Both the position numbers and the translations under genes were made by a program. Source: Actinomycetota bacterium (GTDB lineage Bacteria; Actinomycetota; Actinomycetes; S36-B12; UBA5976). Taken from it: a stretch of 33,159 bases of DNA. Below, piece by piece: positions 1,583-27,852 of this stretch (positions within the stretch are counted from its first letter, which is position 1; each line of letters opens with the position of its first letter). The notes under the pieces are model-generated. The model was given only the letters and a program-made list of their open reading frames with translations, was not told where the DNA came from and did not search any database. Where the stretch lies: contig CANFIL010000001.1 of the NCBI GenBank assembly GCA_947447095.1, positions 1-33,159 of the forward strand, written 5' to 3'.

Positions 1583-1660
1583 GCGTTTGTAGAACCAAGT
1601 AAGCGTGGGACAATTCTATCGGGCTGAGCATTCAGGCCCTTTTTCCAAGGAAAGGCGCTC

Positions 1661-3442: not shown

Positions 3443-3467
3443 ACATTCGATACGGGATAATGAGCAG

Positions 3468-5140: not shown

Positions 5141-6653
5141 TCTTGATGCGGTTGTTTCCTTCGGTACACGAGAAATCGCCAGCATTGACAGCGCCAGTGT
5201 CCGAACTTGCAGAAGGTGTTGCAATTACCACCTTGCGAGGTGCACTCCAATCAGGTCCAACCACAATCACGATTGATTTAGTGAGCGAGTTGTCCTTCTT
5301 CAACAGTTTGGTGTGCGCAGAATAAGCCAGTGAGTCGGCACCAGCTTTGAAGCGCGAGTTGTAATGCACTTCGGTTGCCGTGACTTTGATATCCGAGTTA
5401 CCTGTGCTGGTGATTTTGTACCCAAGTTTGCGAAGTTGCGTTGCCGCCTTATTCGCTAGCCCTGAGGTTTTTGTTCCATTCAAAACAATGACGTGTACGG
5501 AGTCCGCAGGTGTAATGAGTGTCGGAGTGGATGCCTTTGGTGCTGGCGATGCGCTCGCACTTGCGGAGGTGCTCGGTGTTGCCGATGCACTGTCGGAAAC
5601 CGGTGGCCATGGCTTATCGTTTTGAATTGCTTTCCACAAGTCTGCCGTCTCGCTAGTCCAATGCACATTGCCATCACCAATAAGTTCGTAAGGCGTGGTG
5701 ACAAAAGTGATGTTGGCAGGCTTGAGGTAGGAAAGTGACAACGCAAAATCCTCGAGCGCTTTCATGCTGCTCAAGTTCTTACTTGTCGTCAGAGATTCGG
5801 TCACAACATTTAACAGTCGATACATCAATGCTGGGTTCGTTAACAGATGCTTTTCTTGCATGCCACGAATCATGGAGCTGAGGAATTCTTGTTGGCGTTG
5901 AATTCGGCCAAGGTCGCTACCATCACCGATAGATTCGCGCGCACGCACGAATGCCAATGCTTGCTTGCCGCTGATTGTGCTGTATCCCGCAGGGAGATTA
6001 AGTCCACTTCCGCCTTGACCAGGTACGTATGGGTCGTACACCGGCGTTGTGAGACAGACTTTGACGCCGCCGAGAGTGTTTACAACTGACTTGAAGGCTT
6101 TGAAGTCAAGTACTAAGAATTTATCGATTGTGATTCCAGTTTGATTTTGCAAAGTCTTAATTGTGCAAACTGGGCCACCGTAAGCAAACGCAGCATTGAA
6201 CTTTGTTTGCCATGGACCCACGACGCTGCCATCACTTTGCTTGCATGGCCCGATCGAAACGAAAGAATCGCGTGGGATGGAAACAACGAGTGCAGACTTG
6301 CGGCCTTCGTAAAGATGAACGAGCAATGCTGTATCTGCGCGCGCTCCGCCAACATTGCCAAAGCCAGCACCCTGGTCAACTCGAGTATCGCTACCCATGA
6401 CGAGGAAATTTGTAGCGCTCGTGTCGCTTGGGATGTATGGTGCGGGAGTTCCGTTGAGATCGCTCTCATCCACTGTGTGAATGTTTTTATTCAAATTGTT
6501 TAAGGCGTAAACCGCGCCACCGCCGACCGCTGTGACCGTCATGATCAGCACTGAGGCAAAAGCCGTCAGGCGACGAGTCCAAGGACCAACACTCGGCGGC
6601 ACCGTAGTCGGTTGCGCGCGCCGCTTACCGCGGGCTGGTTGATTCTTGGACAT
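5133..6653 (-). CDS. LytR-CpsA-Psr (LCP) family glycopolymer-peptidoglycan ligase with C-terminal LytR_C-like domain
   Basis: 506-aa ORF. An N-terminal basic segment plus one TM helix is followed by the LCP core, FLVMGSDTR...RADTALLVHL...VVSIPRDS. A Ser/Ala/Pro linker and a C-terminal VIVLNGTKTSGLANKAATQLRKLGY module follow. The stop (5133..5135) overlaps the convergent GT2 stop (5138..5140). Confidence 0.9.
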   Translation of the reverse strand: MSKNQPARGKRRAQPTTVPPSVGPWTRRLTAFASVLIMTVTAVGGGAVYALNNLNKNIHTVDESDLNGTPAPYIPSDTSATNFLVMGSDTRVDQGAGFGNVGGARADTALLVHLYEGRKSALVVSIPRDSFVSIGPCKQSDGSVVGPWQTKFNAAFAYGGPVCTIKTLQNQTGITIDKFLVLDFKAFKSVVNTLGGVKVCLTTPVYDPYVPGQGGSGLNLPAGYSTISGKQALAFVRARESIGDGSDLGRIQRQQEFLSSMIRGMQEKHLLTNPALMYRLLNVVTESLTTSKNLSSMKALEDFALSLSYLKPANITFVTTPYELIGDGNVHWTSETADLWKAIQNDKPWPPVSDSASATPSTSASASASPAPKASTPTLITPADSVHVIVLNGTKTSGLANKAATQLRKLGYKITSTGNSDIKVTATEVHYNSRFKAGADSLAYSAHTKLLKKDNSLTKSIVIVVGPDWSAPRKVVIATPSASSDTGAVNAGDFSCTEGNNRIKTK

Positions 6654-6789
6654 CTATTGATGTTACGTCAGTTATTGGAGTGCTCCCAAAACGAATAGAG
6701 CTTCCTAACATCGCCCAAACAATCAAGTAATCCTTCGAATTCACGGCTAGATCCGCTACTTTGCAGGGTTTGTGGGGCAGAATTGAAAT

Positions 6790-8682
6790 ATGCTTCCCCG
6801 CAAATCACTTCAGCGTGCCCAGGTAGGGCTTATTGCGTTGTCGTTGTGTGGAACTTTCATCGCTTTTCAAGCCCCTGTCCAGGCTTTTCGTGGGTATGCG
6901 CCGCCCGTCCAAAATACGCAGATTTCGCTGTCAGCAGTAGCCCCACAAACTGTTAAATCTGGCAAGCAGATGGTGTTGTTCGGCGAGCATACGGTTTCGG
7001 AGTTCACGTTGGTTGGGGTGACGTGGCAGGGCCGGATTGATCCAACTTCTCGATTTGAGGTGCGAGTTCGCGAACATGGCGTCTGGTCCGATTGGCAAAG
7101 CCTGTCGTGGAGTAACGAACACGGTGCTGATGCGTCGAGTTCCGAAGCAAAAGCAGCCCGCGAAGGAACAGACCCTCTGCTCACAGCTCTTGCAACAGGT
7201 GTTGCGGTACGGGTAACTAACGAGTCTGGCACTTTGCCGACGGATGTTTCGCTGTCGTTAGTGAACTCAAATCTGACGTCACAGGATCGTGCGCTTTTAT
7301 CGTCACGTGCGGTCACCGCAACGGTGCCATCGACGGTGACATCGCCACAAGGTGCAGTTGTTCCTCGGCCGAAACTCATCACACGTGCGCAGTGGGGTGC
7401 TAATGAATCGTGGCGAAATCAAGATCCTGGGATGGGCACAAAAATCATTGCGGGTTTCTTGCATCACACTGCGAGCACAAACAGTTATTCCGCTGATCAA
7501 GGCCCGGCGCAAATGCGCAATCTGTTTTCTTACTACACCCAGAGTTTGCACTACAAGGATCTTGCATACAGCTTTTTGGTCGATAAGTACGGAAATGTGT
7601 ATGAGGGACGTTCGGGTTGTCCTCGCGTGGTGACGACTGCGTGCGATGGTCCGGCCCGACCTGCTATTGGTGCTCACACTGCGGGGATGAATCTTAATAC
7701 GTTTGCTATTTCGGCAATCGGAAATTATCACGAAGCAAGTCCAGGTACGCAAGCACTGCAAAAGATGGATGATGCGATTGCCGGGCTGATGGCTTGGAAG
7801 ATTGCTCCATACGGCCTGGATCCCAAAGCGATCGCAAACATTCCCGTGGGAAGCGATCCACATCATTTGTCACGCTATCGAGAAGGGGACATCGCGCATG
7901 TCCTGACAATTTCGGGGCATCGCGATGTTGGTCAAACGGTTTGCCCGGGGCAGTACTTATATCCAGAGTTACCTGCAATTCGAGATCGAATTTCTGCGCT
8001 ACTTACTCCCGTTGTTGCAGTTCCTAAAGCGTCACCGGCCGTCATCGCTGAAGGAGCAAGTACCTCGATCGCTATCACGTCGGTAATCGCAAGTGGAGCG
8101 GCATGGTCAATCGATGTGATTCGCGATGTGGATAGCGCTGTTGTTGGTCATGCAGAAGGTACGACAACTTCCGTTGGACCGATTTCATTTGGTTGGACTC
8201 ACCTTGATACACGTTTGAAGTTGTTGCCAAGTGGTACGTATACCGTGCGCGTGCAACAGTCAGTAGCTCCTCGAGCTGCGTCTTTGTCGCCAACGCCAAC
8301 ACCGACGGCTTCCCGATCGGCTTCTCCGACGCCTTCGACGACCCCCGTTGCACCAGTGGTGAAGACGGGCACAACCACAGTTGTTATTGCAGCTAAACCA
8401 ACTTTGCCGTCATCGCCAACCGTGACGTACCGTTCGAAAACTCGCGCCTGGCTCGTTTGGAAGGCGGCATCGAGTCTGATTCCAGTGACCTATCAATACC
8501 GTGTCCTGGACAAGCAAACGAATAAGTGGTCCGGATGGAAGATTGCCAAGGCAGCAAACTCGCCATTGACTGTCCGTAAACTCGTCAAGTTTCATGGGTA
8601 CAAAGTTCAACTGAAAGCCGTCAGTGCTGTTGGGGAATCCGTGATTCGGGAAACGTCCTACCTGCATAAGTCTGCGAAATAA
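6790..8682 (+). CDS. Secreted N-acetylmuramoyl-L-alanine amidase (amidase_2/PGRP domain) with Pro/Thr/Ser linker and Fn3-like C-terminal domain
   Basis: 630-aa ORF with a signal peptide (LIALSLCGTFIAFQAPVQA). Amidase_2 blocks are present: ITRAQWGANESWR, GFLHHTAS, YSFLVDKYGNVYEGR, GAHTAGMNLNTFAISAIGNY and ISGHRDVGQTVCPG. A PTPTPT-rich linker is followed by an Fn3-like repeat (TVTYRSKTRAWLVWKA...YQYRV...WSGWK). Confidence 0.85.
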   Translation: MLPRKSLQRAQVGLIALSLCGTFIAFQAPVQAFRGYAPPVQNTQISLSAVAPQTVKSGKQMVLFGEHTVSEFTLVGVTWQGRIDPTSRFEVRVREHGVWSDWQSLSWSNEHGADASSSEAKAAREGTDPLLTALATGVAVRVTNESGTLPTDVSLSLVNSNLTSQDRALLSSRAVTATVPSTVTSPQGAVVPRPKLITRAQWGANESWRNQDPGMGTKIIAGFLHHTASTNSYSADQGPAQMRNLFSYYTQSLHYKDLAYSFLVDKYGNVYEGRSGCPRVVTTACDGPARPAIGAHTAGMNLNTFAISAIGNYHEASPGTQALQKMDDAIAGLMAWKIAPYGLDPKAIANIPVGSDPHHLSRYREGDIAHVLTISGHRDVGQTVCPGQYLYPELPAIRDRISALLTPVVAVPKASPAVIAEGASTSIAITSVIASGAAWSIDVIRDVDSAVVGHAEGTTTSVGPISFGWTHLDTRLKLLPSGTYTVRVQQSVAPRAASLSPTPTPTASRSASPTPSTTPVAPVVKTGTTTVVIAAKPTLPSSPTVTYRSKTRAWLVWKAASSLIPVTYQYRVLDKQTNKWSGWKIAKAANSPLTVRKLVKFHGYKVQLKAVSAVGESVIRETSYLHKSAK

Positions 8683-8685
8683 AAC

Positions 8686-9390
8686 ATGTGGAATGTCATT
8701 GCGCGATCAGCACGCGCCTGCGGATCATCGCCGATGTACACATGGGTAAGTAACGTTGGGCGTATTGAACTCAGCGGAACAACTTTTCTTAACGGGGTAT
8801 CCAAGGCTGCAAACATGATGCGGGATGGACTCGATGCCGAGGCTGGCGATGACGTTTTCATCGACCTTGGTAATCATTGGCAGTCGCCGGTTTGGATTGG
8901 GGCTGCACTCAGCGTGCAAGCAGTCATTACTTCACAGCCTGAAAATGTATTGGCGGTTGTTTCACGTGACTCGGTGAATGATGCACAGGGTTCTCGCCGA
9001 ATTGTTGTCATCAGCCGTGATCCATTTGGAATGCCAGAAAAGAATCTTGATGCTGCAGTGATAAACGGATCACTTGAGGTGCGTGGTTTCGGAGATGTCT
9101 TTAGTCCGATGGGAAGCTTTCAGGATATCGATCCGGTGCTGCGAAATGCTGAAAGTGTTCGATGCCTCAGCGAGTTACGTGAAACAGCAGCTTCACTTAT
9201 TGAGTCTCACAACATCGTCACCAGTTCTCGTATTGCCGTAGCTGGAATCACAGATCTATTGGACCGCGCAATGTGGCACGTCGTTATCCCGGTTATTGCC
9301 CAATGCAGCGTTGTGTTACTTGATGGAATCGAAGATCATGCAAAGACGTGCGAAGTTGAGCAAGTCGATCGCCTCGTCGTTATTGACTAA
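8686..9390 (+). CDS. Conserved actinobacterial protein of unknown function (TIGR03089-like; resembles the N-terminal region of adenylate-forming enzymes)
   Basis: 234-aa ORF starting 3 nt after the amidase stop. The segment ELSGTTFLNGVSKAANMMRDGLDAEAGDDVFIDLGNHWQSPVWIGAALSVQAVI matches my recollection of the TIGR03089 family pattern (…NWVAKTANLL.DELD…GD.V.L.LP.HWQ…). Its position between an LCP/cell-wall block and a sugar-1-P nucleotidyltransferase is the usual actinobacterial context. The family assignment is from memory and unverified. Confidence 0.6.
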   Translation: MWNVIARSARACGSSPMYTWVSNVGRIELSGTTFLNGVSKAANMMRDGLDAEAGDDVFIDLGNHWQSPVWIGAALSVQAVITSQPENVLAVVSRDSVNDAQGSRRIVVISRDPFGMPEKNLDAAVINGSLEVRGFGDVFSPMGSFQDIDPVLRNAESVRCLSELRETAASLIESHNIVTSSRIAVAGITDLLDRAMWHVVIPVIAQCSVVLLDGIEDHAKTCEVEQVDRLVVID

Positions 9391-9407
9391 ATGAACGATG
9401 TGAAAGA

Positions 9408-10493
9408 GTGGAGTCCATGGAAGCAATCTTGTTAGTTGGTGGCCAAGGAACACGGCTTCGCCCATTAACGATTTCGACCCCAAAGCCGATGCTTCCTGTC
9501 GCAGGCTTTCCTTGTACGTCTCACCAAATCGCACTCGCAGCAAGTGCCGGCATTGATCGAATTGTGCTTGGGACTTCGTATCGCGCAGAAGTCTTTGAAG
9601 AATATTTCTCAGGTCAAGATCTTGGTGTTGAAATTCGCTACGCCGTAGAAAGCGAACCTTTAGGTACCGGTGGTGCAATTCGAAACGCTGCTGAACAACT
9701 CACATGTGGTCCTGATGATCCAGTTGTCATATTCAACGGCGATGTTTTAACAGGTTTAGACATCTCAGATCTCGTTTCGAAATGGCGTGAAGCTCGTGCA
9801 GATGTGGCTTTGTATCTCACCCGCGTCGAGGACCCTCGTGCATATGGACTTGTTCCTACCGATGCTGCGGGGCGGGTATTGGAATTCAAAGAGAAGCCAA
9901 CCACGCCAGAAGAAATCGTGACCGATCAAATTAATGCGGGATGTTATGTCTTTAAGCGAAGTGTCATCGATCGAATTCCTGCCGGCCAAGTGGTCTCGGT
10001 TGAACGCGAGACATTCCCGGAACTGCTTTCTACAGGTGCCACAGTCATTGGAGTGGTCGATGACGGCTATTGGCTAGATCTTGGAACACCTCTTGCATTT
10101 GCGCAGGGCTCTGCCGATTTAGTCCGTGGAATTGCGCCAAGCCCGCTGCTTGCAGGCCGTACTGGTGATGCTGTAATTCACGACAGTGCAGTTGTACATG
10201 ACACAGCAATCGTTTCAGGTGGCACGTACGTCGGCGCACATGTTGTTATCGGTGAAAATGCGATTGTCGATGCCAGTGTCATTTATGACGGCGTAACGAT
10301 CGGCTCAGGCGCTCGCGTTGTCCGATCAATTGTCAGTACGAACGCGAGTATTGGCTCGCAGAGTTCAATTACTGACACTGTTATTGCAGAGAATGCGTCG
10401 CTTGGGGCACATAACGAATTAAATTTCGGAGCACGAGTATTTCCTGGTGCCGAAATCTCAGATTCTGCAATCCGATTTTCGTCCGACCGCTAA
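9408..10493 (+). CDS. Sugar-1-phosphate nucleotidyltransferase with C-terminal left-handed beta-helix (mannose-1-phosphate guanylyltransferase-like)
   Basis: 361-aa ORF. The N-terminus LLVGGQGTRLRPLTISTPKPMLPV is the NDP-sugar pyrophosphorylase signature. The C-terminal third contains hexapeptide-like repeats (VVIGENAIVDASVIYDGVTIGSGARV...). The start is either GTG 9408 or ATG 9417. Confidence 0.85.
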   Translation: MESMEAILLVGGQGTRLRPLTISTPKPMLPVAGFPCTSHQIALAASAGIDRIVLGTSYRAEVFEEYFSGQDLGVEIRYAVESEPLGTGGAIRNAAEQLTCGPDDPVVIFNGDVLTGLDISDLVSKWREARADVALYLTRVEDPRAYGLVPTDAAGRVLEFKEKPTTPEEIVTDQINAGCYVFKRSVIDRIPAGQVVSVERETFPELLSTGATVIGVVDDGYWLDLGTPLAFAQGSADLVRGIAPSPLLAGRTGDAVIHDSAVVHDTAIVSGGTYVGAHVVIGENAIVDASVIYDGVTIGSGARVVRSIVSTNASIGSQSSITDTVIAENASLGAHNELNFGARVFPGAEISDSAIRFSSDR

Positions 10494-12772: not shown

Positions 12773-12850
12773 TTTTGCCCCCGTTGAACTTCTCTATAAA
12801 TCGTATCGGGTGTACATCCGCGTTAAGCCATTTTGCTACTTGATCGCAAC

Positions 12851-13804
12851 CTAATTCGAAATAAGAAAAGTTTTTCCGACATGAATTGCAAGAACATCCC
12901 AGGCTTTCTTTCCTTGTTCGTCCGTCTTCCAGTCATTGGCAAAACCACAGAAAATCCATTGCGGTCGGTACGTTGCATTCCAGACAATGCCGATGGTGTT
13001 AACTCGGGATCGATTTACTGGAGGTTCGTCACCTGCGACTGTGTGGTACCAACCATTTTTTACGCCAACGTGCCATCCTGCGGGAACCCGTACTGACCCG
13101 GCGCCCCAACGCTGGGTAGGTGACACGTGAGTCATTAGGGCCTTAAGTCGTTTCGTTGACGTTGAACTTAAGAACTGTGGCGTGTCTACAAAAACTCGCT
13201 TGAGTGCCAATGCTTGATCTTGTGCATTGGTCAACGTAGTACCGAATGATTTGTGACCTTGAGTGTGCGTGAGACCAAGTTGACGTGCAGTTGTGGTGAT
13301 TGTCCGTAATCCGCCAATACGTCGAATAAGACGAATTGTTGCGTCGTTATCGGATTGCGTGATCATGGAGTCAAGGTCGTACTTTACGGATTTATAACTC
13401 AGCTTCTTGCGATCGATTTTTGAAAATACTGCGACGGCTACAAGAAATTTTGATGTAGAAGCCGATCGATACTGAATGCTTGAAGATGTCCCGTATTGAT
13501 ACTTACATTGGTGGATCAGATCAATTGCATACGCCTGAAACTTCTTGGCACGGTTTTGCTGCATCCACGTTTTCATGTAACTAGTTGAAAAGGGGTTTTG
13601 GCGCGAACAATCGAAGGCTGCTGATGCGGAAGTCGTTAGTGAAGACGTTGAGTTTGCAACGTGCATTCCAGCCGGCACGTGAGACGCAATCGTTCCTGAG
13701 ATTCGCGGCTCAGCATGAGCTTGAGGCGAAGTCGGGCTACAACCTGTCAGCGCTGCGATCGAAACTAAAGCGCTCAAAGTGAGTCCTAGAAACTTTCGCT
13801 GCAT
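12851..13804 (-). CDS. Lipoprotein with class A beta-lactamase/penicillin-binding serine hydrolase fold
   Basis: 317-aa ORF. A lipobox is present at the N-terminus (AALTGC). SxxK motif (SASTSKFLVAVAV) and SDN motif (ITQSDNDAT) are both present. The third motif reads KNG (VGVKNGW) instead of K-T/S-G. I could not find an omega-loop ExxLN-type motif. Confidence 0.8.
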   Translation of the reverse strand: MQRKFLGLTLSALVSIAALTGCSPTSPQAHAEPRISGTIASHVPAGMHVANSTSSLTTSASAAFDCSRQNPFSTSYMKTWMQQNRAKKFQAYAIDLIHQCKYQYGTSSSIQYRSASTSKFLVAVAVFSKIDRKKLSYKSVKYDLDSMITQSDNDATIRLIRRIGGLRTITTTARQLGLTHTQGHKSFGTTLTNAQDQALALKRVFVDTPQFLSSTSTKRLKALMTHVSPTQRWGAGSVRVPAGWHVGVKNGWYHTVAGDEPPVNRSRVNTIGIVWNATYRPQWIFCGFANDWKTDEQGKKAWDVLAIHVGKTFLISN

Positions 13805-13926
13805 AGTTAATTATCCGTGAGTTTGATTGACTACGTGGACACTCATCGCCGCTGTTGCATACCAATTTCATGCTGTTAACCACCGATTTACCCTGAAAAA
13901 ACTAAGTCAGTAAGATTGTGGTTGGA

Positions 13927-13999
<73 letters not shown>

Positions 14000-14012
14000 C
14001 TGTTTAATCTGA

Positions 14013-14657
14013 TCAGCTTGGTGAAACGGGCGGCTGCGGAACAAGCTTTTTCGCTTTCGCTTTACTGACACCTAAGAGTTCAAGACTGAGGGCAAGCAAA
14101 TTATCTGCGTGTTCCGGGGACGATTCACCTGTGACATGTACTCGATGCAAAATTCCGGCCAAGCAATATGCCCACAAGTACACCTGTTCTTCAAAATTGT
14201 CTTGAGCAAATCCCTCAGCTGCAGTAGCGCGTTTGAGGTCGGACATACCAATCGCACTAACGGCTTTAATAACAAAAGCGGGATTATCTAAAGTCTTATT
14301 CAAGATCTTTGCAAAAAGTGGATTCGTTTCCTTCGCTCTAAAGAGCTTTCGGCACACGCCCAACATGCTTTGCAAGTTTTCCCCCACGGGAGCTCCGTCA
14401 TAGGCCCAGAGCACCCATTCCTGCCACACTGTTTCGAGTGCCTCGCCGAAGAGCAGCTCTTTGCTCTCAAAGTAGTTGTAGATGGTTGCTGGTGAGACTT
14501 GGGCGTGAACCGCCAATTGTTCGATAGTTGCGCCCAGCCCAATCTCGGCAAGAACCTCTTGGGCGGATTTCACCAATGCAGCCCGATTTCGGGCGGTGTA
14601 GGCGGCTAGGCGCCCCCCGTTGCCCTTTGGTTGGTTTTCTGTCCCCGCCATGCTCAC
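14013..14657 (-). CDS. TetR/AcrR family transcriptional regulator
   Basis: 214-aa ORF. The N-terminal HTH region is AALVKSAQEVLAEIGLGATIEQLAVHAQVSPATIYNYFESKELLF. The start is GTG 14657 or ATG 14651. It is divergent from the LRR protein gene, and its stop lies only 13 nt after the tRNA. Confidence 0.9.
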   Translation of the reverse strand: MSMAGTENQPKGNGGRLAAYTARNRAALVKSAQEVLAEIGLGATIEQLAVHAQVSPATIYNYFESKELLFGEALETVWQEWVLWAYDGAPVGENLQSMLGVCRKLFRAKETNPLFAKILNKTLDNPAFVIKAVSAIGMSDLKRATAAEGFAQDNFEEQVYLWAYCLAGILHRVHVTGESSPEHADNLLALSLELLGVSKAKAKKLVPQPPVSPS

Positions 14658-14725
14658 AGTCTATGCGCCACGTCACCACGTTAATTCGTTTGCGCTTGCG
14701 CTTCCCTTGAGTTTTGTTATATTGA

Positions 14726-14737
14726 TTCAAATTTGAA
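14726..14737. promoter_or_regulatory. Perfect 12-bp palindrome TTCAAATTTGAA, a candidate TetR operator in the divergent promoter region
   Basis: Read directly from the sequence; it equals its own reverse complement. It lies just downstream of a possible promoter for the LRR gene (TTGCGC 14696..14701, 16-nt spacer, TATATT 14718..14723). It sits 25 nt upstream of the GTG at 14762. Confidence 0.3.
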
Positions 14738-14761
14738 GTAACACTACAAAACTGGAGAATA

Positions 14762-17700
14762 GTGATGTTTCGTTCCCTAGCCAAATCGCACACAAACGCA
14801 AAGAAGTTGCCAAGTTTCATCATTGGGATTGCGTTAGTGGCTGGAACTACAGTGGTTGCTGCAAGTCCAGCGTCGGCTGCTGGTAGAGACATCGCATGTT
14901 CTGTATCAGGAACTTTCAGCATCAACGACAACAACGTTGTGAATTCGTCCAGCAGCGATTGTTCCGGCGCAGTCGTCATTCCTGCCGACGTGACTCGTAT
15001 TGGAGCATGGGCCTTTGCCAATAGGCACATCACAAGCCTCGACTTTGAAACCGGCAGTCAGCTGGTTGCCATCGATATGTATGCCGCCGAATTCTCTGAC
15101 CTGGCTACAATTCATTTGCCAACCGGACTTCAGACCATCGGCCACGGTGCTTTTACATACGCCAAAATCACAACAATTTCGATACCAGGAACGGTTGAGA
15201 CGATTACTGGAAGCCCGTTTAATTCAACGAACCTCCAGACCGTGATATTTGAAGAACGAGTCACCCCCATCATCAATTTGAGTGTTGACACGTTCCAAGA
15301 CAGCCGCGACCTCAGTTCGGTTACTTTCAGAGGGCCAATCGAAGTGCGTGGTGGAATTCGCTCGCCGAAGAGCAAAGAAGGCCTGAAATGGGCAGGCTGG
15401 TCCAAATCTGTTGATGGTCCAGTCGTTTCGTTCCCACTGTCGATTACAGAATCTGGGGGTGCCACGTTGTACCCCGTTTGGGTCCCCCCATTCGTCGAAG
15501 TTTTTAACTGTTCTTTAGGTGGAACTTTCAGGATCGTCGATCACGTCGTAACTTCGTCGACCAATGACTGTGTCGGAGAAGTTGTGGTCCCCGCAGACGC
15601 CATTGAAATTGGCTCATGGGCTTTCTCAGGAAAAAACCTCACCAGCATGAGCTTCGCTGCTGGCAGCCAATTAACACAAATTTCAAATTACGCTTTTGAA
15701 TACTCTCAATTGTCGTCGATAACCTTGCCAGCTGGCCTAACATCCATCGGCGGTGGAGCGTTTACAAGCACGAAAATTACATCGATCGTTTTACCTTCTG
15801 GACTGAAGTCAATCGGCGACGCAGCTTTTTATGGAACGAAAATTACTTCTATTTCGATTCCGGGAAACGTCGAAACAATTAGCGGTAGCCCATTCCGAAA
15901 CAGCGATCTTGTGACTGCGACCTTTGAACCACGTATTGCTTCAAGTTTCAACTTGGCGGGCTCTACGTTTCAGAATGCGTCCAATCTGACCTCCGTTATC
16001 TTCAGCGGCCCAGTTCAAGTGAGCAATTTGGGAACCATCTCAAAAGCGGACTTTAACTGGACGGGTTGGTCAACGTCTCCGGGCGGTTCTGTGATTTCCT
16101 TCCCGTTCTCCGTCACGGATTCTGCAGGAGTGACGTTGTATCCAAAGTGGACTGCCCAAATCATCGCGACAGGTAACTGCTCGTTGGGTGGAACGTTCAG
16201 AATTGTTGATCACATAATTAAATCGTCCACTGATGATTGTGCTGGCGTGGTCTCGGTTCCTGCCGATGTGACTGAGATCGGCTACACAGCATTCTCAGGC
16301 AAGAACGTCACGAGCGTGAACATTGAGGCTGGCAGTCAGCTCACAAGAATCGCAGAGTATGCCTTCGAATTTACGCCACTCACTTCAATCAATTTGCCAA
16401 ACGGATTTAAATCAATCGGGCACGGAGCTTTTACTTTCGCAAAGCTTTCGACTATTTCGATCCCAGGAACTGTCGAAGCTATTGAAGGTTCTCCTTTTTA
16501 TGGCGCTGCCCTTGAGACTGTGGTCTTTGAACCACGCGTAGCTTCCCAGTTGTCGACGTCAAACGATGCATTCATCTACACACGCAAACTACGCTCAGTC
16601 ACATTTATGGGCCCTATCAACTTCGATAGCGCACCGTTCGGGCATACGCGTTACGCACAAGATTGGTTAGGTTGGTCTACAAGTTTGGGTGGTCCCATTG
16701 TGACGTACCCGCTTTCAGTGACAGATCCTGCTGGTGTAGTTCTTTACCCGAACGCATCACCGAGAACTTATACGGCAACCTACGATTCACGCGGTGGAAC
16801 GGAAGTGGCTCCGGGCAGCATTGTTGGTGGGGAAATCGAATTCCCTGTTTCACCTACGCGGGCGGGTTACACATTTGATGGCTGGTTTGATTCGCCCAAT
16901 TATTGGGATTGGTCTCGAGGACCAGTTACTTTGTGGGATCAAAACAATGGGGCGACTTTCTATGCAAAGTGGATCCCAGACACTCATGTGGTGAATTTCA
17001 ACTCTAAGGGTGGGTCCGCGGTTTCTGCAGGTTCGTTTGTAACCGATGGTGAAATTTCATCAGCACCGGAGGCTCCTGTTCTTGATGGCTACAGGTTGGG
17101 TGGCTGGTCTGCAACTGACGGGGGATCTGAAATCTCGTTCCCATATGCACCCGGCGGCATACAAGATGTAACTCTTTACGCGGTTTGGATTCGCAACACA
17201 CCGACAATTACTTCTGGTTCTACACCGGACTCTCAGGTAGTTAGTATTCCTGCTGGATTGACTGAGGCGGTAGTTCCGGCCACTGCGAGCTTGCCAGGAA
17301 TCAAATTTGGACTACCTGGAACAGGCGGCCAAGTCATTGCAACGGTGGCTCCGACAGTGAATCCCGCTAATGTTGCGCATACGCCATTTACAGTGAATGG
17401 CTCAACTGTAATTGTTGACATTGAGATAACCGGCGTCACTGGAGACGTCACTGTCTGTATTGACGGTGGTCCCCGAGATCACATCTATCACTACACCGGT
17501 GGAGCGTGGGTGGACCTTCCACAGCGAACCTATGTAAATGGACAGGTCTGTGGCGTCACTTCGAGTTACTCGCCATTCACGGCTGCGACCCCTCTTCCGT
17601 ACAAGCCGTACGTCATGGAGCGTCCTTCGATTTCTGGAAATGCTCAACAGGACACTTACCTGTCTTCAACGATGGGAACCTGGGCAGCTGATCCAGTCGC

Positions 17701-18556
17701 TACTAAATCGGTGCAGTGGTATCGCTGTGACAAGAATGTGTCTGCAGGTCTCACAACGTTTACTGCTGCAATGAAATGCAAGAAAATTGCTGGCGCTACG
17801 AAAGCGAGCTACAAAGTTTCTCTTGCCGACCAGGGAAAGTACCTTTCGAGTTTGGTAAAAGCTACTAACACTGTTGGGTCAGCTACGTTAACGACTAAGG
17901 CGATTCGTGTTCCTCTAGCGACGCAGCCAAAGTTGAAAACACTCGCAAAGCTCTCAGGCACTGCCGCAAAGGGCAAGCAAGTCACTTTGACTGCCGGCAA
18001 GTGGACCGCGAACCCAGTCGCCGCTACATCTCAGCAGTGGTATCGCTGTGAGAAGTCGGTTAAGGCAGGACTTGATGCATTGGCAACTGCTGCGAAGTGC
18101 ACGAAGGTCCCTGGTGCTACCGGCCTTCGATACAGGGTTGTAACCGCGGATCTGGACATGTATCTCACGGCTGTCATCACGGCAAAGAACTCGCAAGGTG
18201 TCGTTGTGATTACGGCTAAGAGCGTTCATGTACCTGGAACAAAGCCAACGTCAAAGACATCACCTTCTATTTCAGGAGCTGCTGTTTTGGATGGTGCGCT
18301 TCAAGCAACTTATGGCAAGTGGACGGCTGTTCCAGAAGCAACCACCTCGGTGCAGTGGTATCGCTGTGATGCGTCTGTTTCGGCTGGCCGTGGATCACTT
18401 TCGACTTCGAGTTGTACGAAGATTGCCGGCGCGACGGGCTCCCGATACAAGGTAACTGTCGCGGATCAAGGCAAGCGTCTCGCTGTTGAAGTTAAGGCTA
18501 AGAATTCATACGGAAATAATTCCGCACATTCAAAGTCAACTGCTCAGGTGAATTAA
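14762..18556 (+). CDS. Large secreted modular protein: signal peptide, 3 BspA-type leucine-rich-repeat modules, 2 Listeria-Bacteroides (Flg_new/InlB-B-like) repeats, and 3 C-terminal Cys-pair repeats
   Basis: 1264-aa ORF. GGAGA lies 7 nt before the ATG at 14765 (GTG 14762 is the alternative start). The signal peptide ends in ASPASAAG. LRR segments follow the pattern I-x-x-x-AF-x-x-x-x-L-x-S-I-x-LP. Flg_new-type repeats are present (YTATYDSRGGTEV...AGYTFDGWFDS..., VVNFNSKGGSAV...DGYRLGGWSATDGG...LYAVW). I found no LPXTG motif, C-terminal TM helix or lipobox. Confidence 0.9.
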   Translation: MMFRSLAKSHTNAKKLPSFIIGIALVAGTTVVAASPASAAGRDIACSVSGTFSINDNNVVNSSSSDCSGAVVIPADVTRIGAWAFANRHITSLDFETGSQLVAIDMYAAEFSDLATIHLPTGLQTIGHGAFTYAKITTISIPGTVETITGSPFNSTNLQTVIFEERVTPIINLSVDTFQDSRDLSSVTFRGPIEVRGGIRSPKSKEGLKWAGWSKSVDGPVVSFPLSITESGGATLYPVWVPPFVEVFNCSLGGTFRIVDHVVTSSTNDCVGEVVVPADAIEIGSWAFSGKNLTSMSFAAGSQLTQISNYAFEYSQLSSITLPAGLTSIGGGAFTSTKITSIVLPSGLKSIGDAAFYGTKITSISIPGNVETISGSPFRNSDLVTATFEPRIASSFNLAGSTFQNASNLTSVIFSGPVQVSNLGTISKADFNWTGWSTSPGGSVISFPFSVTDSAGVTLYPKWTAQIIATGNCSLGGTFRIVDHIIKSSTDDCAGVVSVPADVTEIGYTAFSGKNVTSVNIEAGSQLTRIAEYAFEFTPLTSINLPNGFKSIGHGAFTFAKLSTISIPGTVEAIEGSPFYGAALETVVFEPRVASQLSTSNDAFIYTRKLRSVTFMGPINFDSAPFGHTRYAQDWLGWSTSLGGPIVTYPLSVTDPAGVVLYPNASPRTYTATYDSRGGTEVAPGSIVGGEIEFPVSPTRAGYTFDGWFDSPNYWDWSRGPVTLWDQNNGATFYAKWIPDTHVVNFNSKGGSAVSAGSFVTDGEISSAPEAPVLDGYRLGGWSATDGGSEISFPYAPGGIQDVTLYAVWIRNTPTITSGSTPDSQVVSIPAGLTEAVVPATASLPGIKFGLPGTGGQVIATVAPTVNPANVAHTPFTVNGSTVIVDIEITGVTGDVTVCIDGGPRDHIYHYTGGAWVDLPQRTYVNGQVCGVTSSYSPFTAATPLPYKPYVMERPSISGNAQQDTYLSSTMGTWAADPVATKSVQWYRCDKNVSAGLTTFTAAMKCKKIAGATKASYKVSLADQGKYLSSLVKATNTVGSATLTTKAIRVPLATQPKLKTLAKLSGTAAKGKQVTLTAGKWTANPVAATSQQWYRCEKSVKAGLDALATAAKCTKVPGATGLRYRVVTADLDMYLTAVITAKNSQGVVVITAKSVHVPGTKPTSKTSPSISGAAVLDGALQATYGKWTAVPEATTSVQWYRCDASVSAGRGSLSTSSCTKIAGATGSRYKVTVADQGKRLAVEVKAKNSYGNNSAHSKSTAQVN
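14897..16765 (+). repeat. Three tandem, diverged modules of about 200-225 aa inside the LRR protein gene (14897..15508, 15509..16177, 16178..16765)
   Basis: Each module starts C-S-[VL]-[SG]-G-T-F-x-I-x-D...S-S-x-x-D-C-x-G-x-V-x-[IV]-P-A-D. Each ends W-x-G-W-S-x-S-x-x-G-P/S-x-V-x-[FY]-P-[LF]-S-[IV]-T-[ED]-x-x-G-x-x-L-Y-P. The DNA copies have diverged, and I saw no long identical stretches. Confidence 0.8.
16766..17191 (+). repeat. Two Listeria-Bacteroides-type (Flg_new-like) repeats within the LRR protein gene
   Basis: The pattern Y-x-[VA]-x-[YF]-[DN]-S-[RK]-GG-[TS]-x-V...G-Y-x-[FL]-[DG]-GW...[FL]-YA-[KV]-W occurs twice in tandem. Confidence 0.7.
17624..18553 (+). repeat. Three tandem repeats of about 100-106 aa at the C-terminus of the LRR protein (17624..17926, 17927..18244, 18245..18553)
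   Basis: The consensus is SG-x-A-x-x-G-x-x-L-x-A-x-x-G-x-W-T-A-x-P-x-A-T-x-S-x-QWYRC-x-x-x-V-x-AG...C-[KT]-K-[IV]-x-GAT-x-x-x-Y-[KR]-V-x-x-AD-x-G-K/M-Y/R-L. The exact 17-mer cagtggtatcgctgtga occurs at 17714, 18035 and 18353, a spacing of 321 and 318 nt. Confidence 0.85.
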
Positions 18557-18622
18557 GAGGTATTCAGTCACATACCAGTACGTCTGACCGAGAGGCTGTG
18601 ACGTGGTTTGACTGGATATGTT

Positions 18623-18662
18623 GTGTGGGGCGATCTGAAAATCAATTCAGATCGCCCCACAC
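18623..18662 (+). terminator. Perfect 17-bp stem / 6-nt loop hairpin downstream of the LRR protein gene (no U-tract)
   Basis: gtgtggggcgatctgaa (18623..18639), aatcaa, ttcagatcgccccacac (18646..18662). The arms are exact reverse complements. No T-run follows on either strand, so this is at best a tail-less terminator of the kind described in Actinobacteria. Confidence 0.55.
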
Positions 18663-18716
18663 GTATGTGACCTTCTGCTTATTAACCAGGTGATAGATCT
18701 GTGCCACGTTGCGCAG

Positions 18717-18748
18717 GTGTCGACGGTTCGAGTTTGTCGGGGTCAACT
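18717..18748 (+). repeat. Degenerate direct copy of the 3' half of tRNA-Lys (variable loop, T-arm, acceptor 3' strand); an att-like scar or part of a decayed tRNA
   Basis: 18719..18748 (gtcgacggttcgagTTTgtcggggTcAact) aligns without gaps to 13972..14001 (gtcgacggttcgagCCCgtcggggCcTact). There is an exact 14-mer, then an exact 7-mer in register, giving 25/30 identical on the same strand. Four of the five differences are C-to-T transitions. Confidence 0.65.
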
Positions 18749-18765
18749 CAATTAGAGTTGTAAAC

Positions 18766-20853
18766 GTGATTGCTCAGGGCTCGTCAAAGTCGGCCGTAGA
18801 ACGACTACTTCGAGGTGCGCTCGTCGCGTTTATGATCGCACTATTTTCGGGAACTATTGCCGACCAAGTAACGCGCAACTTCACTCATAGCGCCAACGTT
18901 GTGGCGGAGGTGTGGGTTACTTTTGCTGTTATCAGCGGGTATGTTTACCGAACCAAACTCCGTAGTGTTGCCCCAGGCATTGAGTACTTCGATTTAGCTG
19001 AGCGAACTAGGCACTGGGTTGGGCGAATAGCGATTCTTGCCGCTATCGCCGCAGTCGTTTTGACGACACTTCCACACGCATCGACAGTGTTTATCGTTGC
19101 CAAAGTTGTCGCAATTCTTATCGCCATCGGTGGCGCTGTGGGCTATTGGCTTGCAAGCGAAGAGCCGAAAGCTCAAATCGGTAAATCCGACATCATGCAG
19201 CGTGTGAATTCGCGCGTCCTTGGCGGCTGTGCATTTGTCGCAGCCCTACTTGCGTCAATGACTTATCGCACAAGTACCGATGATTTCTATTACGTCAATT
19301 TGTCCACATACATTTTCGACAAGGGACAGATTCCAGTACGCGACACTGTGCTCAGCGACCAATACTTCAATGGTTATGCGCGAATGTCATCGTGGGAAGT
19401 TCTGTGGGGTGTCTTTGCCCGCATCACTCACATACACGTCGCACTTCTCTTGTACGTAGTGTTTATTCCGCTGGCCGCAGCACTTTCTATTTATGTCTTA
19501 GCCAAGCTGATGGAATCAATGGGTATTCGACATCTGAATTTGGCCCTAATTGCGTCAACGATTTTCTTGGCTTTTGATGGGGTACAAGGCTTTACCTTTG
19601 GCTCGTATCAAGGACCACGTATTTGGCAAGGAAAGTCATTTTTCCTTGCAGTACTCATCCCATTGCTGTCCTTGCTGATACTGAAATTGCTTCGGTCGGG
19701 TAGCAAAGTCGACGCGATCATCCTCATTGGCGCAACGGTCGCTTCACTTGGTGCAACCACCACCACATTCATCATCGGCTTGCCGATGCTTGCTGCTGGT
19801 TTGTTCATTGCGCTGATGAATCGCAATCGAATTCAATCATTAGCTTTTTCTGCTTCCATCGCATACCTGCTTGCAACTGCTGTTTTATTCAAGAGAATGT
19901 TGGACGCGGAAAACACGACACAAGTGAGCGCTTTGGGACGTGGCGCTGGCGTAATTATTCGCACCGCAAAATACTCAACGCACGATGACATCCCACAATC
20001 ATTTGATTTGCTCACCAAACTGTCAGGTCCTACTTGGCACGCGACGCTATTCGCATTTGCAGCGGTCGTTGGGTGGATTGCGCTGCGAGGCAATTACGCA
20101 CGTCAGCTAGTTGCGCTGTATCTTGCCGCGTGGGGCTTCATCAGTAGCCCAGGCATCGTTCAGTTCTATACGGCAGCAACAGGCTCTGCTCCGATTGCCT
20201 GGCGTTACATTTGGCTCATCCCCATTCCATTGCTCGTAGGGGCGACGGCCTCTGTTTTGTATGACGGAATTTGGTACACGAGCACTTCACAAAAAATCCG
20301 CACGACGACAGCCTTAACCTGGGTTGCTTTGCTCGCGGTTCTGCCCATGACCTTGGGAACTCCGCCTTGGAAGATTGCTCCAGGATCGCGAGTGAGCGCA
20401 GACCTCACCAAGCCCGGTGTTTATCGAGTTGGCTTTGGCTATCCTCAAGCAGAAAAAGCTCTGCGTAAGGTTGCGAAGGAACATGACATCGTGTTGGCCC
20501 GCAATGGAATTAGCGCCTCTATCAATTCACGAACGACACGGTACTTCACAGTTGGGCTTCGACATGCATACGTCGAACATGCGACTAACGGTTTTAAGAA
20601 CGGTTTCCCAAAGCAGCGAATTGCACTTGCCACGTATGTTGGCAATCTCGAGGATAAGCCAACGCTTACTGATGCAAAGTTAGCCAGAGATCTGCGGCTT
20701 GTTCGCGTGAATGTGGTGTGTATTAGTAAAGAGCAAAGCCATCAAATCCCCACTTTTAAGGCACTGGGGTACATCGATAAACAAGCAAAAGTATCAAAGT
20801 CTGATGGTCGTATCTGGGTTTGGTGTGGTCGAACAAATGCATACGACAACTAG
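18766..20853 (+). CDS. Large polytopic membrane protein of unknown function with a C-terminal soluble domain of about 150 aa (possibly a GT-C-like glycosyltransferase or polymerase)
   Basis: The ORF is open from TTG 18709 (714 aa), but the first 13 codons would overlap the tRNA-like repeat. GTG 18766 (VIAQGSSKS...) is my preferred start, and it remains uncertain. There are at least 12 hydrophobic helices, followed by a hydrophilic C-terminal domain (PGVYRVGFGYPQAEKALRKVAKEHDIVLARNG...). I recognise no catalytic motif. Confidence 0.75.
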   Translation: MIAQGSSKSAVERLLRGALVAFMIALFSGTIADQVTRNFTHSANVVAEVWVTFAVISGYVYRTKLRSVAPGIEYFDLAERTRHWVGRIAILAAIAAVVLTTLPHASTVFIVAKVVAILIAIGGAVGYWLASEEPKAQIGKSDIMQRVNSRVLGGCAFVAALLASMTYRTSTDDFYYVNLSTYIFDKGQIPVRDTVLSDQYFNGYARMSSWEVLWGVFARITHIHVALLLYVVFIPLAAALSIYVLAKLMESMGIRHLNLALIASTIFLAFDGVQGFTFGSYQGPRIWQGKSFFLAVLIPLLSLLILKLLRSGSKVDAIILIGATVASLGATTTTFIIGLPMLAAGLFIALMNRNRIQSLAFSASIAYLLATAVLFKRMLDAENTTQVSALGRGAGVIIRTAKYSTHDDIPQSFDLLTKLSGPTWHATLFAFAAVVGWIALRGNYARQLVALYLAAWGFISSPGIVQFYTAATGSAPIAWRYIWLIPIPLLVGATASVLYDGIWYTSTSQKIRTTTALTWVALLAVLPMTLGTPPWKIAPGSRVSADLTKPGVYRVGFGYPQAEKALRKVAKEHDIVLARNGISASINSRTTRYFTVGLRHAYVEHATNGFKNGFPKQRIALATYVGNLEDKPTLTDAKLARDLRLVRVNVVCISKEQSHQIPTFKALGYIDKQAKVSKSDGRIWVWCGRTNAYDN

Positions 20854-25303: not shown

Positions 25304-26692
25304 ATGTCAGCAAATAGCCCCGGTTACGCCATCACATTGCGTGTTGAACTCAGCCCAGAGTCAGCATCAACCGCAGGACTTGCTCAAGCAGTCAGCGACT
25401 GTGGCGCAAGTTTGACGGCGCTCGACGTTGTCGAATCCAGCTACGAGCGCATGGTCGTCGACGTGACCTGCGATACCTCAGATGTTGATCACGCAGACCA
25501 GGTCACCGCTGCAATTAAGGCGCTGCCCGGAGCCACCGTGCGCAACGTCAGCGACCGTACCTTCCTGTTACACCTCGGCGGAAAAATCGAAGTCAAGCCA
25601 AAGGTGCCACTTCGTACCCGAGATGACTTGTCCCGCGCGTACACCCCAGGTGTAGCCCGCGTATGTATGGCAATTGCCGAAGATCCAAAGAGTGCCCGCC
25701 ACCTCACGATCAAGCGCAACACGGTTGCAGTTGTTACCGACGGTTCTGCGGTACTTGGACTTGGCAACATCGGTCCAGCTGCTGCGCTTCCTGTGATGGA
25801 GGGTAAGGCTGCCTTGTTCAAGCAGTTTGCCGACGTGGATGCATGGCCCGTTTGCCTCGACACTCAAGACGTTGATGAAATCGTTCGCACTGTTCAGATT
25901 CTTGCTCCGCAGTATGGCGGCATCAACCTCGAAGATATTTCAGCACCACGTTGCTTCGAAGTAGAAGCACGGTTGCGCGAACTTCTCGACATCCCCGTTT
26001 TCCACGATGACCAGCACGGTACGGCAATCGTTGTACTCGCTGCATTGCAGAACGCATTAAAGATCGTGAAGAAGAAGCCAGAGGATTTGAAGATCATCCT
26101 GAGTGGAGCTGGCGCAGCCGGTACCGCAATTGCGCAGTTGCTCATGGAAACTGGCGTGAAGAACATCGTTGCTTTTGATTCCAAGGGCGCTGTCTATGAC
26201 GGTCGTCCTGGCGGCAACAGCACCAGCACCTGGATGCTTGAAAACACGAACAAAGATGAATTCAAGGGAACGCTTGGCGAGAGTCTCAAGGGCGCAGATG
26301 TATTTATTGGCGTCAGCGCACCAGACATCATCACCGAAGCCGAAGTAGCAACGATGGCTGATAAGTCAATCGTGTTCGCAATGGCTAACCCTGATCCTGA
26401 AATCGATCCGATCTTGGCCGCCAAGCACGCCGCGATTGTTGCAACGGGACGAAGCGATTATCCGAATCAAATCAATAACGTTTTGGCATTCCCTGGAATT
26501 TTCCGCGGCTTGCTGGATGCTGGCGCGTACAAGATCACGACTGCGACGTTGATCGCTGCGGCTCAAGCAATTGCAGATTGCGTAAAGCCAGAACAGCTCA
26601 ACGCCAGCTACATCGTGCCAAGCGTTTTCGACCCGCATGTCGCAACCTCTGTTGCTGCAGCCGTTCAGCGCGTTGCTGAGGCTGGCAAGTAA
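25304..26692 (+). CDS. NAD(P)-dependent malic enzyme (small type) with N-terminal ACT-like domain
   Basis: The ATG at 25304 is preceded by AAGGAG (25293..25298). Malic-enzyme blocks are present: [60 protein letters not shown] and GAGAAGTAI. About 85 N-terminal residues form an ACT-like regulatory module. Confidence 0.9.
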
Positions 26693-27407: not shown

Positions 27408-27425
27408 CTTTCTGCACCAACAGCG

Positions 27426-27470
27426 AAGGCCGGCTCCCACAATCGTGGAGGTCGGCCTTTGGTGTTTCCG
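27426..27470 (+). terminator. Probable intrinsic terminator between convergent genes
   Basis: aaggccggctcccac-aatc-gtggaggtcggcctt forms a 15-position stem with one mismatch and two G-U pairs. It is followed by TTGGTGTTTCC. Confidence 0.5.
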
Positions 27471-27478
27471 GTTATTAA

Positions 27479-27697
27479 TTAACCAGCAAGTGCGTCACGG
27501 AATCGATCCATGACAGATCGGCGAGTCTGTACGTTTCCGTACTTATCTGCCTTGAATGAACGAACGATCGATGGAATCTGACCGATGCGATCTTCTGCGA
27601 TTGCATTGTTGATGTAGATCGCATAGCTGACCTGGAGATCATCCTGGCTTAGCTCTTTGACCATATTCTTGTCATCCGCTTTGTGAGCGAGACTCAT
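27479..27697 (-). CDS. Small hypothetical protein (72 aa)
   Basis: The ATG at 27697 is preceded by GGAGGAAAT on the minus strand, a strong RBS. There is no Cys and no hydrophobic segment, and I recognise no family. Confidence 0.55.
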   Translation of the reverse strand: MSLAHKADDKNMVKELSQDDLQVSYAIYINNAIAEDRIGQIPSIVRSFKADKYGNVQTRRSVMDRFRDALAG

Positions 27698-27852
27698 ATT
27701 TCCTCCAAATACGCGGGTTTTGCGTACTTTTAGTATCTCACGGCTTCGTTACCAAAAAGTTACCAAAGCCCATGCTCTGAGTGAACAGTGCTGTGAGACT
27801 GCCCACACGCGCAGCCTGAACGACCTGTGAAACGCGAGTAACATTGCTGAAC

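Follow-up and report, generated by a model that had tools for sequence, protein, structure and literature searches.

A two-gene block beside the tRNA-Lys(UUU) gene of a freshwater actinobacterium: probably an old relic inserted at a cassette hot spot

The locus

The 33,159-nt stretch of DNA analysed here (contig CANFIL010000001.1; the window) belongs to a freshwater actinobacterium of the Candidatus Nanopelagicales type, a lineage whose nearest named relatives are metagenome-assembled genomes (MAGs) labelled Candidatus Nanopelagicales. Our subject is a 4.7-kb islet in this window that encodes a TetR-family regulator and a giant secreted leucine-rich-repeat (LRR) protein, and that is bracketed by the tRNA-Lys(UUU) gene on one side and by a partial copy of the 3′ end of the same gene on the other. 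The comparison with related loci makes it very probable that an old two-gene block was inserted into tRNA-Lys at a hot spot by an integrase-type entry, that the partial copy is the displaced 3′ end of the target, and that the block is now an immobile relic. The features on which the argument turns are the following.

13927..14000, plus strand: functional tRNA-Lys(UUU), called by ARAGORN and by Rfam (68.7 bits over 13927-13999); left border of the islet and, in our interpretation, the regenerated integration target.
13972..14001, plus strand: proximal repeat copy, consisting of the last variable-loop base, the T-arm, the 3′ acceptor strand and the discriminator, then CT.
14013..14657, minus strand: TetR-family regulator gene (Pfam TetR_N); cargo.
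14710..14753, no strand assigned: palindrome in the divergent TetR/LRR intergenic region, detected by repeat search; putative TetR operator.
14762..18556, plus strand: gene for a secreted surface protein of 1264 aa with a signal peptide, three LRR_5 (BspA-type) modules, Flg_new repeats and three Ig-like C-terminal repeats.
18557..18718, no strand assigned: non-coding spacer of 162 nt at the distal end of the insert, which may be a relic of an arm of the element.
18719..18748, plus strand: displaced tRNA-Lys 3′ fragment, matching the proximal copy at 25 of 30 positions; it forms the right insertion border and is non-coding.
18749..18765, plus strand: conserved native spacer between the tRNA end and the DUF6077 gene, aligned with the empty site and five other relatives.
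18766..20853, plus strand: DUF6077 polytopic membrane-protein gene, the native right flank, with its start at GTG 18766.

Data and methods

Transfer RNA genes were called with ARAGORN and with the Rfam tRNA model (threshold E <= 10), and protein domains were assigned with Pfam. The significance of the repeat was evaluated by a window scan on both strands, by 300 shuffles and by a binomial expectation. Related loci were gathered by tracing contigs that encode DUF6077 homologues; a further set of eleven contigs with an identical TetR, from about ten samples, was found through the TetR protein itself and carries the corresponding ascertainment caveat. Scans of metagenome and genome collections for further kin yielded few close relatives, and the distant DUF6077 relatives (about 46% identity), which lie in other contexts without the tRNA, were of no help in polarizing the ancestral state.

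A partial copy of the tRNA-Lys 3′ end

The segment 13972-14001 (GTCGACGGTTCGAGCCCGTCGGGGCCTACT), that is, the last 28 nt of tRNA-Lys(UUU) followed by CT, has a same-strand copy at 18719-18748 (GTCGACGGTTCGAGTTTGTCGGGGTCAACT). The two are identical at 25 of 30 positions (83%; same-strand repeat search), the far copy showing 14 exact bases, a change of CCC to TTT, 7 exact bases, a change of C to T, an unchanged C, a change of T to A, and ACT. An earlier note on this DNA, made without database searches, had described the repeat by these coordinates and sequences, its 14-mer plus 7-mer pattern and its identity, all of which proved exact. Across the whole window and on either strand, the next-best match to the tRNA 3′ end reaches 19/30; the best score in the shuffles is 22/30, and the binomial expectation is about 1e-5 sites, a second estimate giving 0. 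Agreement at 25 of 30 positions with a tRNA 3′ end specified in advance goes far beyond what chance would give. The reasoning of the earlier note that an exact 14-mer is in itself very unlikely by chance in 33 kb fails for an all-against-all comparison, in which about 2 direct pairs of exact 14-mers are expected and about 5 unrelated pairs are present.

The duplication is confined to the 3′ part of the tRNA, as had been claimed: similarity ends at 18719, and the 5′ 45 nt of the tRNA align with the 98 nt upstream of this position no better than shuffled sequences do (score 12 versus a shuffle mean of 12.3). The duplicated block has its left edge at the variable-loop/T-arm boundary, where integrase-generated tRNA fragments commonly start. 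ARAGORN and Rfam detect a single tRNA in the window, and neither returns anything tRNA-like for the far copy at E <= 10. A cloverleaf or second tRNA at 18669-18748 likewise finds no ARAGORN call, no Rfam match and no similarity to the 5′ part of the tRNA, and the fold has a z-score of -0.93, which for a single sequence is not significant. The candidate identity of the far copy as a tRNA or pseudo-tRNA was accordingly rejected, and the possibility raised earlier that it might be an independent tRNA gene falls with it. A mechanical open reading frame (ORF) from TTG 18709 would cover the far copy; because the eight closest DUF6077 homologues (689-695 aa) fit a start at GTG 18766 and not at TTG 18709, we regard the copy as non-coding.

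An empty site and alternative cargo in related lineages

The tRNA-Lys gene is identical in four other lineages (74/74 positions in comparison with L001, L005 and L008), and the tRNA plus CT is the sole stretch that is 100% identical across the compared lineages. What follows the gene differs from lineage to lineage, as listed here with the identity of the respective DUF6077 protein to that of the window.

L008, 69%: empty.
L001, 78%: four ABC-transporter (ATP-binding cassette) genes.
L003 and L004, 67%: four ABC-transporter genes.
L005, 67%: a GyrI-like gene, the stop of which overlaps the tRNA end.
L038, no DUF6077 identity, as the contig ends before that gene: the ABC genes, followed by a TetR gene (67% identity to that of the window) with a divergent signal-peptide gene and the same palindrome.

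The TetR and LRR cargo is present in the window, L006 and L042-L044, and L007 has at least the LRR gene.

In L008 the site is unambiguously empty. A single contig carries the DUF308 gene, a native upstream block, tRNA-Lys at 1123-1196, 19 nt, and the DUF6077 gene beginning at GTG 1216. The L008 junction reads ...GTCGACGGTTCGAGCCCGTCGGGGCCTACTCCATTTAGAGTTAGAGACGTG and the far junction of the window ...GTCGACGGTTCGAGTTTGTCGGGGTCAACTCAATTAGAGTTGTAAACGTG; the alignment of the far copy with the tRNA end of L008 and the sequence after it spans 42 columns, and the distance to the GTG is 19 nt in both. Because it has the same spacing and the same downstream bases as L008, the far copy is the original 3′ end of the tRNA in its native position, displaced in the sense that the functional tRNA now lies 4.7 kb upstream. 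The search for empty or differently occupied sites that the earlier note had proposed was thus positive, with L008 empty and ABC or GyrI-like cargo in other lineages, and neither of the outcomes that it had named as contrary, a uniform occupancy of the site or an independent tRNA at the far copy, was found. The gap between the tRNA and the DUF6077 gene, being empty or differently filled in relatives, is a recurrent insertion hot spot, and the interleaving of empty and occupied states on the DUF6077 tree requires that cargo was gained, or precisely lost, on several occasions. After the tRNA the window reads CTGTTTAATCTGATCA, which is similar to the CTGTTAATGAGATCA found after the ABC module of L038; this likeness fits, and may reflect, successive additions at the tRNA-proximal side.

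When the position of the far copy is held in fixed register, partial tRNA repeats can be recognized at the cassette ends of L007 (17/30; P = 6e-4) and, marginally, L001 (13/30; P = 0.04), in addition to the 25/30 of the window. Free local alignment at the other occupied junctions gave scores the same as those of shuffles, so that the signal exists in fixed register alone. At the far end of the GyrI-like cassette of L005 (9878-9895), GTTCGGACTCTACTC resembles the tRNA end CGTCGGGGCCTACTC; the resemblance is not significant by the shuffle test, and this stretch may be a displaced fragment. L037 was considered as a second certain empty site on account of a perfect tRNA end before its DUF6077 gene and was set aside since this Logan contig starts exactly at an overlap of k-1 = 30 nt and may represent either an empty site or a perfect repeat. 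The Logan contigs L037, L049 and L051 all begin at, or 1 nt from, GTCGACGG (window 13972), which equals this 30-nt overlap. Such starts reflect a k-1 overlap with the tRNA plus CT shared by co-occurring lineages, so they are not junction evidence, and their match to the edge of the repeat is accidental.

The cargo

Pfam and the ORF calls agree with the earlier description of the bracketed 4.7 kb as containing the TetR regulator and the giant secreted LRR protein as sole genes. The tRNA lies 12-13 nt from the TetR stop (13 nt had been given). In L038, the TetR homologue, 67% identical, is located downstream of the same tRNA with the ABC module in between, and a palindrome like that at 14710-14753 is kept at about 150-230 on the minus strand, between the TetR gene and the divergent signal-peptide gene. 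Given this conservation, the palindrome is probably the TetR operator, through which TetR would control the divergent surface-protein gene. The LRR gene itself is repetitive (14897-18392; 16617-16632), with three modules, each about 610-670 nt long, and, toward the C-terminus, three repeats of about 320 nt, and the contigs L006, L045 and L046 break within it, probably at these repeats.

The 162-nt spacer downstream of the LRR gene contains a perfect 17-bp terminator-like hairpin of that gene at 18623-18662; it is 100% identical in L006 and L042-L044 and unalignable with L007. As had been noted, the far repeat follows the longest gene-free stretch of the window, the 209-nt gap at 18557-18765; a larger gap at 27408-27843 (436 nt) holds a 72-aa ORF that is likewise called in L003. 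Among the Pfam matches of the window genes (two ORFs are without a match) there is no integrase, transposase or other recombinase domain, in keeping with the earlier statement that an integrase is lacking.

Age and variability

In the eleven contigs with an identical TetR, the arrangement is the same over whatever length each contig covers; identity is 99.8-100%, with no insertions or deletions, and the four loci that reach across the spacer and repeat do not differ in these 212 nt. In L007, whose DUF6077 protein is 85% identical, the corresponding position is occupied by an orthologue of the LRR gene, with the C-terminal 370 aa 64% identical and collinear. The proposal that the islet delivers a strain-variable surface protein is therefore unsupported, given both the near-identity of the islet in about ten samples and the LRR orthologue shared with L007; the presence of that orthologue in a lineage with 85% DUF6077 identity implies that the variation lies between species- or genus-level lineages.

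A comparable depth applies to the ABC cassette (L001 5970-9946; L003 104-4080; L038 968-4944). Its proteins are 90-98% identical between lineages, and its neighbours DUF6077, DUF308, NTP_transferase and isochorismatase are 69-86% identical between the same lineages. Recent horizontal transfer of the cassette was considered and rejected, because saturation at its four-fold sites (0.35-0.58) is as advanced as in the flanks; the saturation of synonymous sites indicates that the cassette is old and under very strong purifying selection.

How the islet arose

On the basis of the junctions, we propose the following course of events. The native order in this lineage is the DUF308 gene, tRNA-Lys(UUU), 19 nt and the DUF6077 gene. 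The block would have been inserted through site-specific recombination in the part of the tRNA gene that runs from the T-arm to the 3′ end, and the incoming DNA would have brought a replacement 3′ end, regenerating the tRNA as in the islands of tRNA-targeting tyrosine integrases. The recombinase gene would have been lost later, or the enzyme might always have acted in trans. The islet would now be an old and fixed relic, probably immobile because the tRNA side keeps just 12-13 nt of non-coding DNA. The core of the earlier suggestion, a relic islet without an integrase at a hot spot for cassettes, is thus borne out by the empty site of L008, the in-register copy and the other cargo. The comparison with L008 demonstrates that an insertion took place and what the scar is; that an integrase took part we infer from the anatomy alone.

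Several observations weigh against this scenario. No recombinase is annotated in any version of the cargo seen. Displaced fragments are not statistically demonstrable at the junctions of L003 and L005 or at the ABC/TetR junction of L038. No viral contig with this tRNA 3′ end turned up in two exact-pattern scans, one with 28 nt and one with 20 nt, so that the candidate of a phage or element attachment site (attP) bearing it was dropped. The guanine-plus-cytosine (GC) content of the islet, its GC at third codon positions (GC3) and its codon usage are indistinguishable from the flanks, which rules out a foreign composition. The compositional check proposed earlier, then, gave no foreign sign: the islet is the most deviant 4.7-kb segment in tetranucleotide profile (+3.5 standard deviations), a deviation plausibly explained by the internally repetitive LRR gene. 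From the native-like composition it follows that the insertion either is old or had a close relative as its donor. The remaining two objections concern the 5′ side of the tRNA and the preservation of the scar, and each is bound up with a rival explanation.

A 45-nt block upstream of the tRNA (GAGTCTCGGTAGGCT...GTGGCTTCGGCCAC.AAGC), with a promoter-like sequence and a leader hairpin, is common to L001, L005, L008 and L038 and is absent anywhere in the window. Its place (window 12773-13926) is occupied by a gene that is absent between the DUF308 gene and the tRNA in the same four lineages, together with 122 nt of unrelated sequence.

12851..13804, minus strand: beta-lactamase-like gene (Pfam Beta-lactamase2); lineage-specific insertion 5′ of the tRNA.

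This replacement is unforeseen by a simple integration, and a second event is needed. As to the borders claimed for the islet, the tRNA and the far repeat do mark its ends, and the left border is less clean than had been thought, since the native upstream block has been replaced. Conceivably, all this happened at once: a single import of about 5.9 kb, comprising the beta-lactamase-like gene, the upstream region, tRNA-Lys, TetR, LRR and the spacer, would have replaced the native tRNA promoter and the 5′ 45 nt by illegitimate or homology-facilitated recombination, and the 30-nt copy would be the stump of the truncated native tRNA rather than an attachment-type scar. Such an import would account for the unrelated sequence and extra gene that the window has in place of the upstream block of L001, L005, L008 and L038, and for the absence of a recombinase. 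We nevertheless consider it unlikely, because the module of TetR and secreted-protein genes in L038 keeps the native upstream block and lacks the beta-lactamase-like gene, so that the two events are separable, because the duplicated block starts at the variable-loop/T-arm boundary typical of integrase-generated fragments, and because L007 has an in-register copy of the same 30-nt block. A separate second event on the 5′ side of the tRNA is favoured for the first of these reasons, the co-occurrence of the TetR module and the native upstream block in L038.

Also on this side of the tRNA, a cell-envelope glycopolymer cluster (269-10493; Glyphos_transf, two CDP-OH_P_transf, GT2, LytR_cpsA_psr, amidase and NTP_transferase) adjoins the hot spot, and its layout recalls a tRNA-bordered envelope island of Candidatus Actinomarinales.

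Preservation of the scar

At four-fold sites the identity between the window and L007 is 0.374 (Jukes-Cantor distance 1.35). For an insertion older than the split from L007, a neutral scar would be expected to retain about 55% identity to the tRNA, and the probability of at least 25/30 is 0.001, which is the last of the points that speak against a simple old insertion. The scar could be constrained, could have been re-created by later integration or conversion, or could stem from an independent later integration of a related module.

Active maintenance of the fragment, either as a live attachment (att) site for integrase-less cassettes moved in trans or as a mimic of the T-arm and acceptor that serves to process the DUF6077 transcript, is a doubtful proposition in our judgement. 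If true, the TetR plus LRR, ABC and GyrI-like cassettes would still be moved by a recombinase encoded elsewhere, and the attachment site would be periodically re-created. More broadly, selection might keep the far copy as a usable trans recombination site, a tRNA-like RNA-processing element or part of the DUF6077 promoter, which we hold to be improbable. This proposal draws on the 25/30 identity that persists despite an LRR orthologue shared with L007 at saturated synonymous divergence (expected about 55%, P = 0.001; the copy in L007 is at 17/30). It can also appeal to the two T-stem substitutions, both of which turn G-C pairs into G-U with pairing kept, and to TGACCTT at 18669-18675, which pairs with the altered GGGGTCA at 18739-18745 (7 bp, at a tRNA-like 77 nt) in a stem that is present in the minimum-free-energy fold. 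The start of DUF6077 at 19 nt after the tRNA in the empty site, furthermore, suggests co-transcription or a promoter inside the tRNA. However, 35 of 200 shuffles fold as well (z-score -0.93), Rfam and ARAGORN make no tRNA-like call at E <= 10, and by our own estimate the acceptor-like pairing would arise by chance with a probability of about 0.02 at that distance to about 0.3 anywhere in the spacer. The copies of this version, being all identical, offer no covariation; no consensus promoter was found; the block has decayed, and hence is dispensable, in L007 and L001; and the preservation would need no function if the window lineage had acquired its islet by a later, independent integration.

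Lastly, the notion that the far copy is the remnant of a tandem second tRNA-Lys or a product of chance, with TetR and LRR native between two tRNA loci, can point to the T-loop bases GGTTCGA, which are common to most tRNAs, so that part of the 14-mer would fit any decayed tRNA, but it is highly improbable in view of the empty site and the alternative cargo at the same gap, the missing counterpart of the tRNA 5′ 45 nt, the position of the copy exactly where the single tRNA-Lys ends in the empty site, and the roughly 1e-5 sites expected.

Further observations on the right flank

A -10-like TAGAGT box (18753-18758) lies 7 nt before the GTG of the DUF6077 gene, and TAGAGT or TAGTAT is found at this place in all relatives. 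Together with the 19-nt distance in the empty site, the box suggests a leaderless mRNA from a -10-only promoter, or possibly co-transcription with the tRNA. Consensus promoter and terminator scans around both junctions found nothing beyond chance. Farther along, the window and L006, which are 99.4% identical, differ by 55 mismatches, 41 of which fall within 350 nt of the malic-enzyme gene (25534-25882), mostly at every third base; this cluster looks like a short imported recombination tract.

Implications and comparison with known systems

The locus provides a base-by-base record of a tRNA-Lys(UUU) hot spot in an abundant and poorly cultured freshwater actinobacterial lineage, with an empty site, three cargoes and one composite. 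For annotation, it follows that the far copy should not be called as a gene and that the DUF6077 start is the GTG at 18766. More generally, the findings bear on how streamlined genomes without visible mobile-element genes swap cassettes of surface proteins and transporters.

In tRNA-gene integration, the target is split and the incoming DNA restores the gene, such that the regenerated gene and the displaced fragment form the ends of the island (Islander, PMC4383910). The tDNA islands catalogued in this way, which are the work of tyrosine integrases at tRNA and transfer-messenger RNA (tmRNA) genes, resemble the islet in having an intact tRNA at one border, a direct 3′ fragment at the other and an empty allele in a relative. 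By the same yardstick, the islet shows the intact tRNA, the displaced direct fragment and, in L008, the uninterrupted target, and has no internal integrase. It further differs in its small size (4.7 kb, two genes), in its native-like composition, and in being old and fixed.

A closer parallel is offered by the additive flexible islands of streamlined aquatic bacteria. In Candidatus Actinomarinales, additive tRNA-linked islands (flexible genomic island fGI1 and the tRNA-Ile/Glu loci) with tRNA-fragment repeats carry envelope genes and ABC transporters (PMC7771536); fGI-2 of Candidatus Methylopumilus has repeats of the last 20 nt of tRNA-Lys(ctt) (PMC10872708); and the genomic islands GI2-4 of Planktophila (order Nanopelagicales) are described as additive and tRNA-flanked (PMC12817590). 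Shared with these are the tRNA hot spot, the small adjacent cassettes, the partial direct tRNA repeat at the end of the cassette in the window and the types of cargo (surface or envelope proteins and ABC transporters), the envelope-glycopolymer cluster being adjacent here. Unlike them, the present locus has tRNA-Lys(UUU) as its target in a lineage of about 51% GC related to Candidatus Nanopelagicales MAGs, and its variation is among deeply diverged lineages with saturated synonymous sites, with one clear repeat and no array. Different cassettes do occupy one position, and strain-level variation within a species was not seen among the TetR-ascertained contigs.

The tycheposons of Prochlorococcus are likewise tRNA-anchored, successive integrations pushing older elements inward, with partial tRNAs between them and degenerated remnants scattered (bioRxiv 10.1101/2020.12.28.424599). 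They differ in having a tyrosine recombinase and a replication module, neither of which is in the window, so that the islet would at best be a remnant. Cis-mobilizable elements (CIMEs) and the accretion arrays of integrative conjugative and integrative mobilizable elements (ICE-IME; PMC5704250; ICEberg 2.0, PMC6323972) are similar in that att-type repeats flank DNA without recombination or transfer genes of its own, and the composite of ABC and TetR modules in L038 looks like accretion at a single att site. In contrast to CIMEs, which the integrase of a helper excises or integrates at functional att sites, the islet has a tRNA-side att arm cut to 12-13 nt, and no helper element is known in the lineage.

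Thus, apart from the absence of a recombinase with any version of the cargo and the preservation of the scar beyond expectation, which are its only unusual points, the locus is an ordinary example of the well-known additive tRNA-linked genomic island and calls for no new mechanism.

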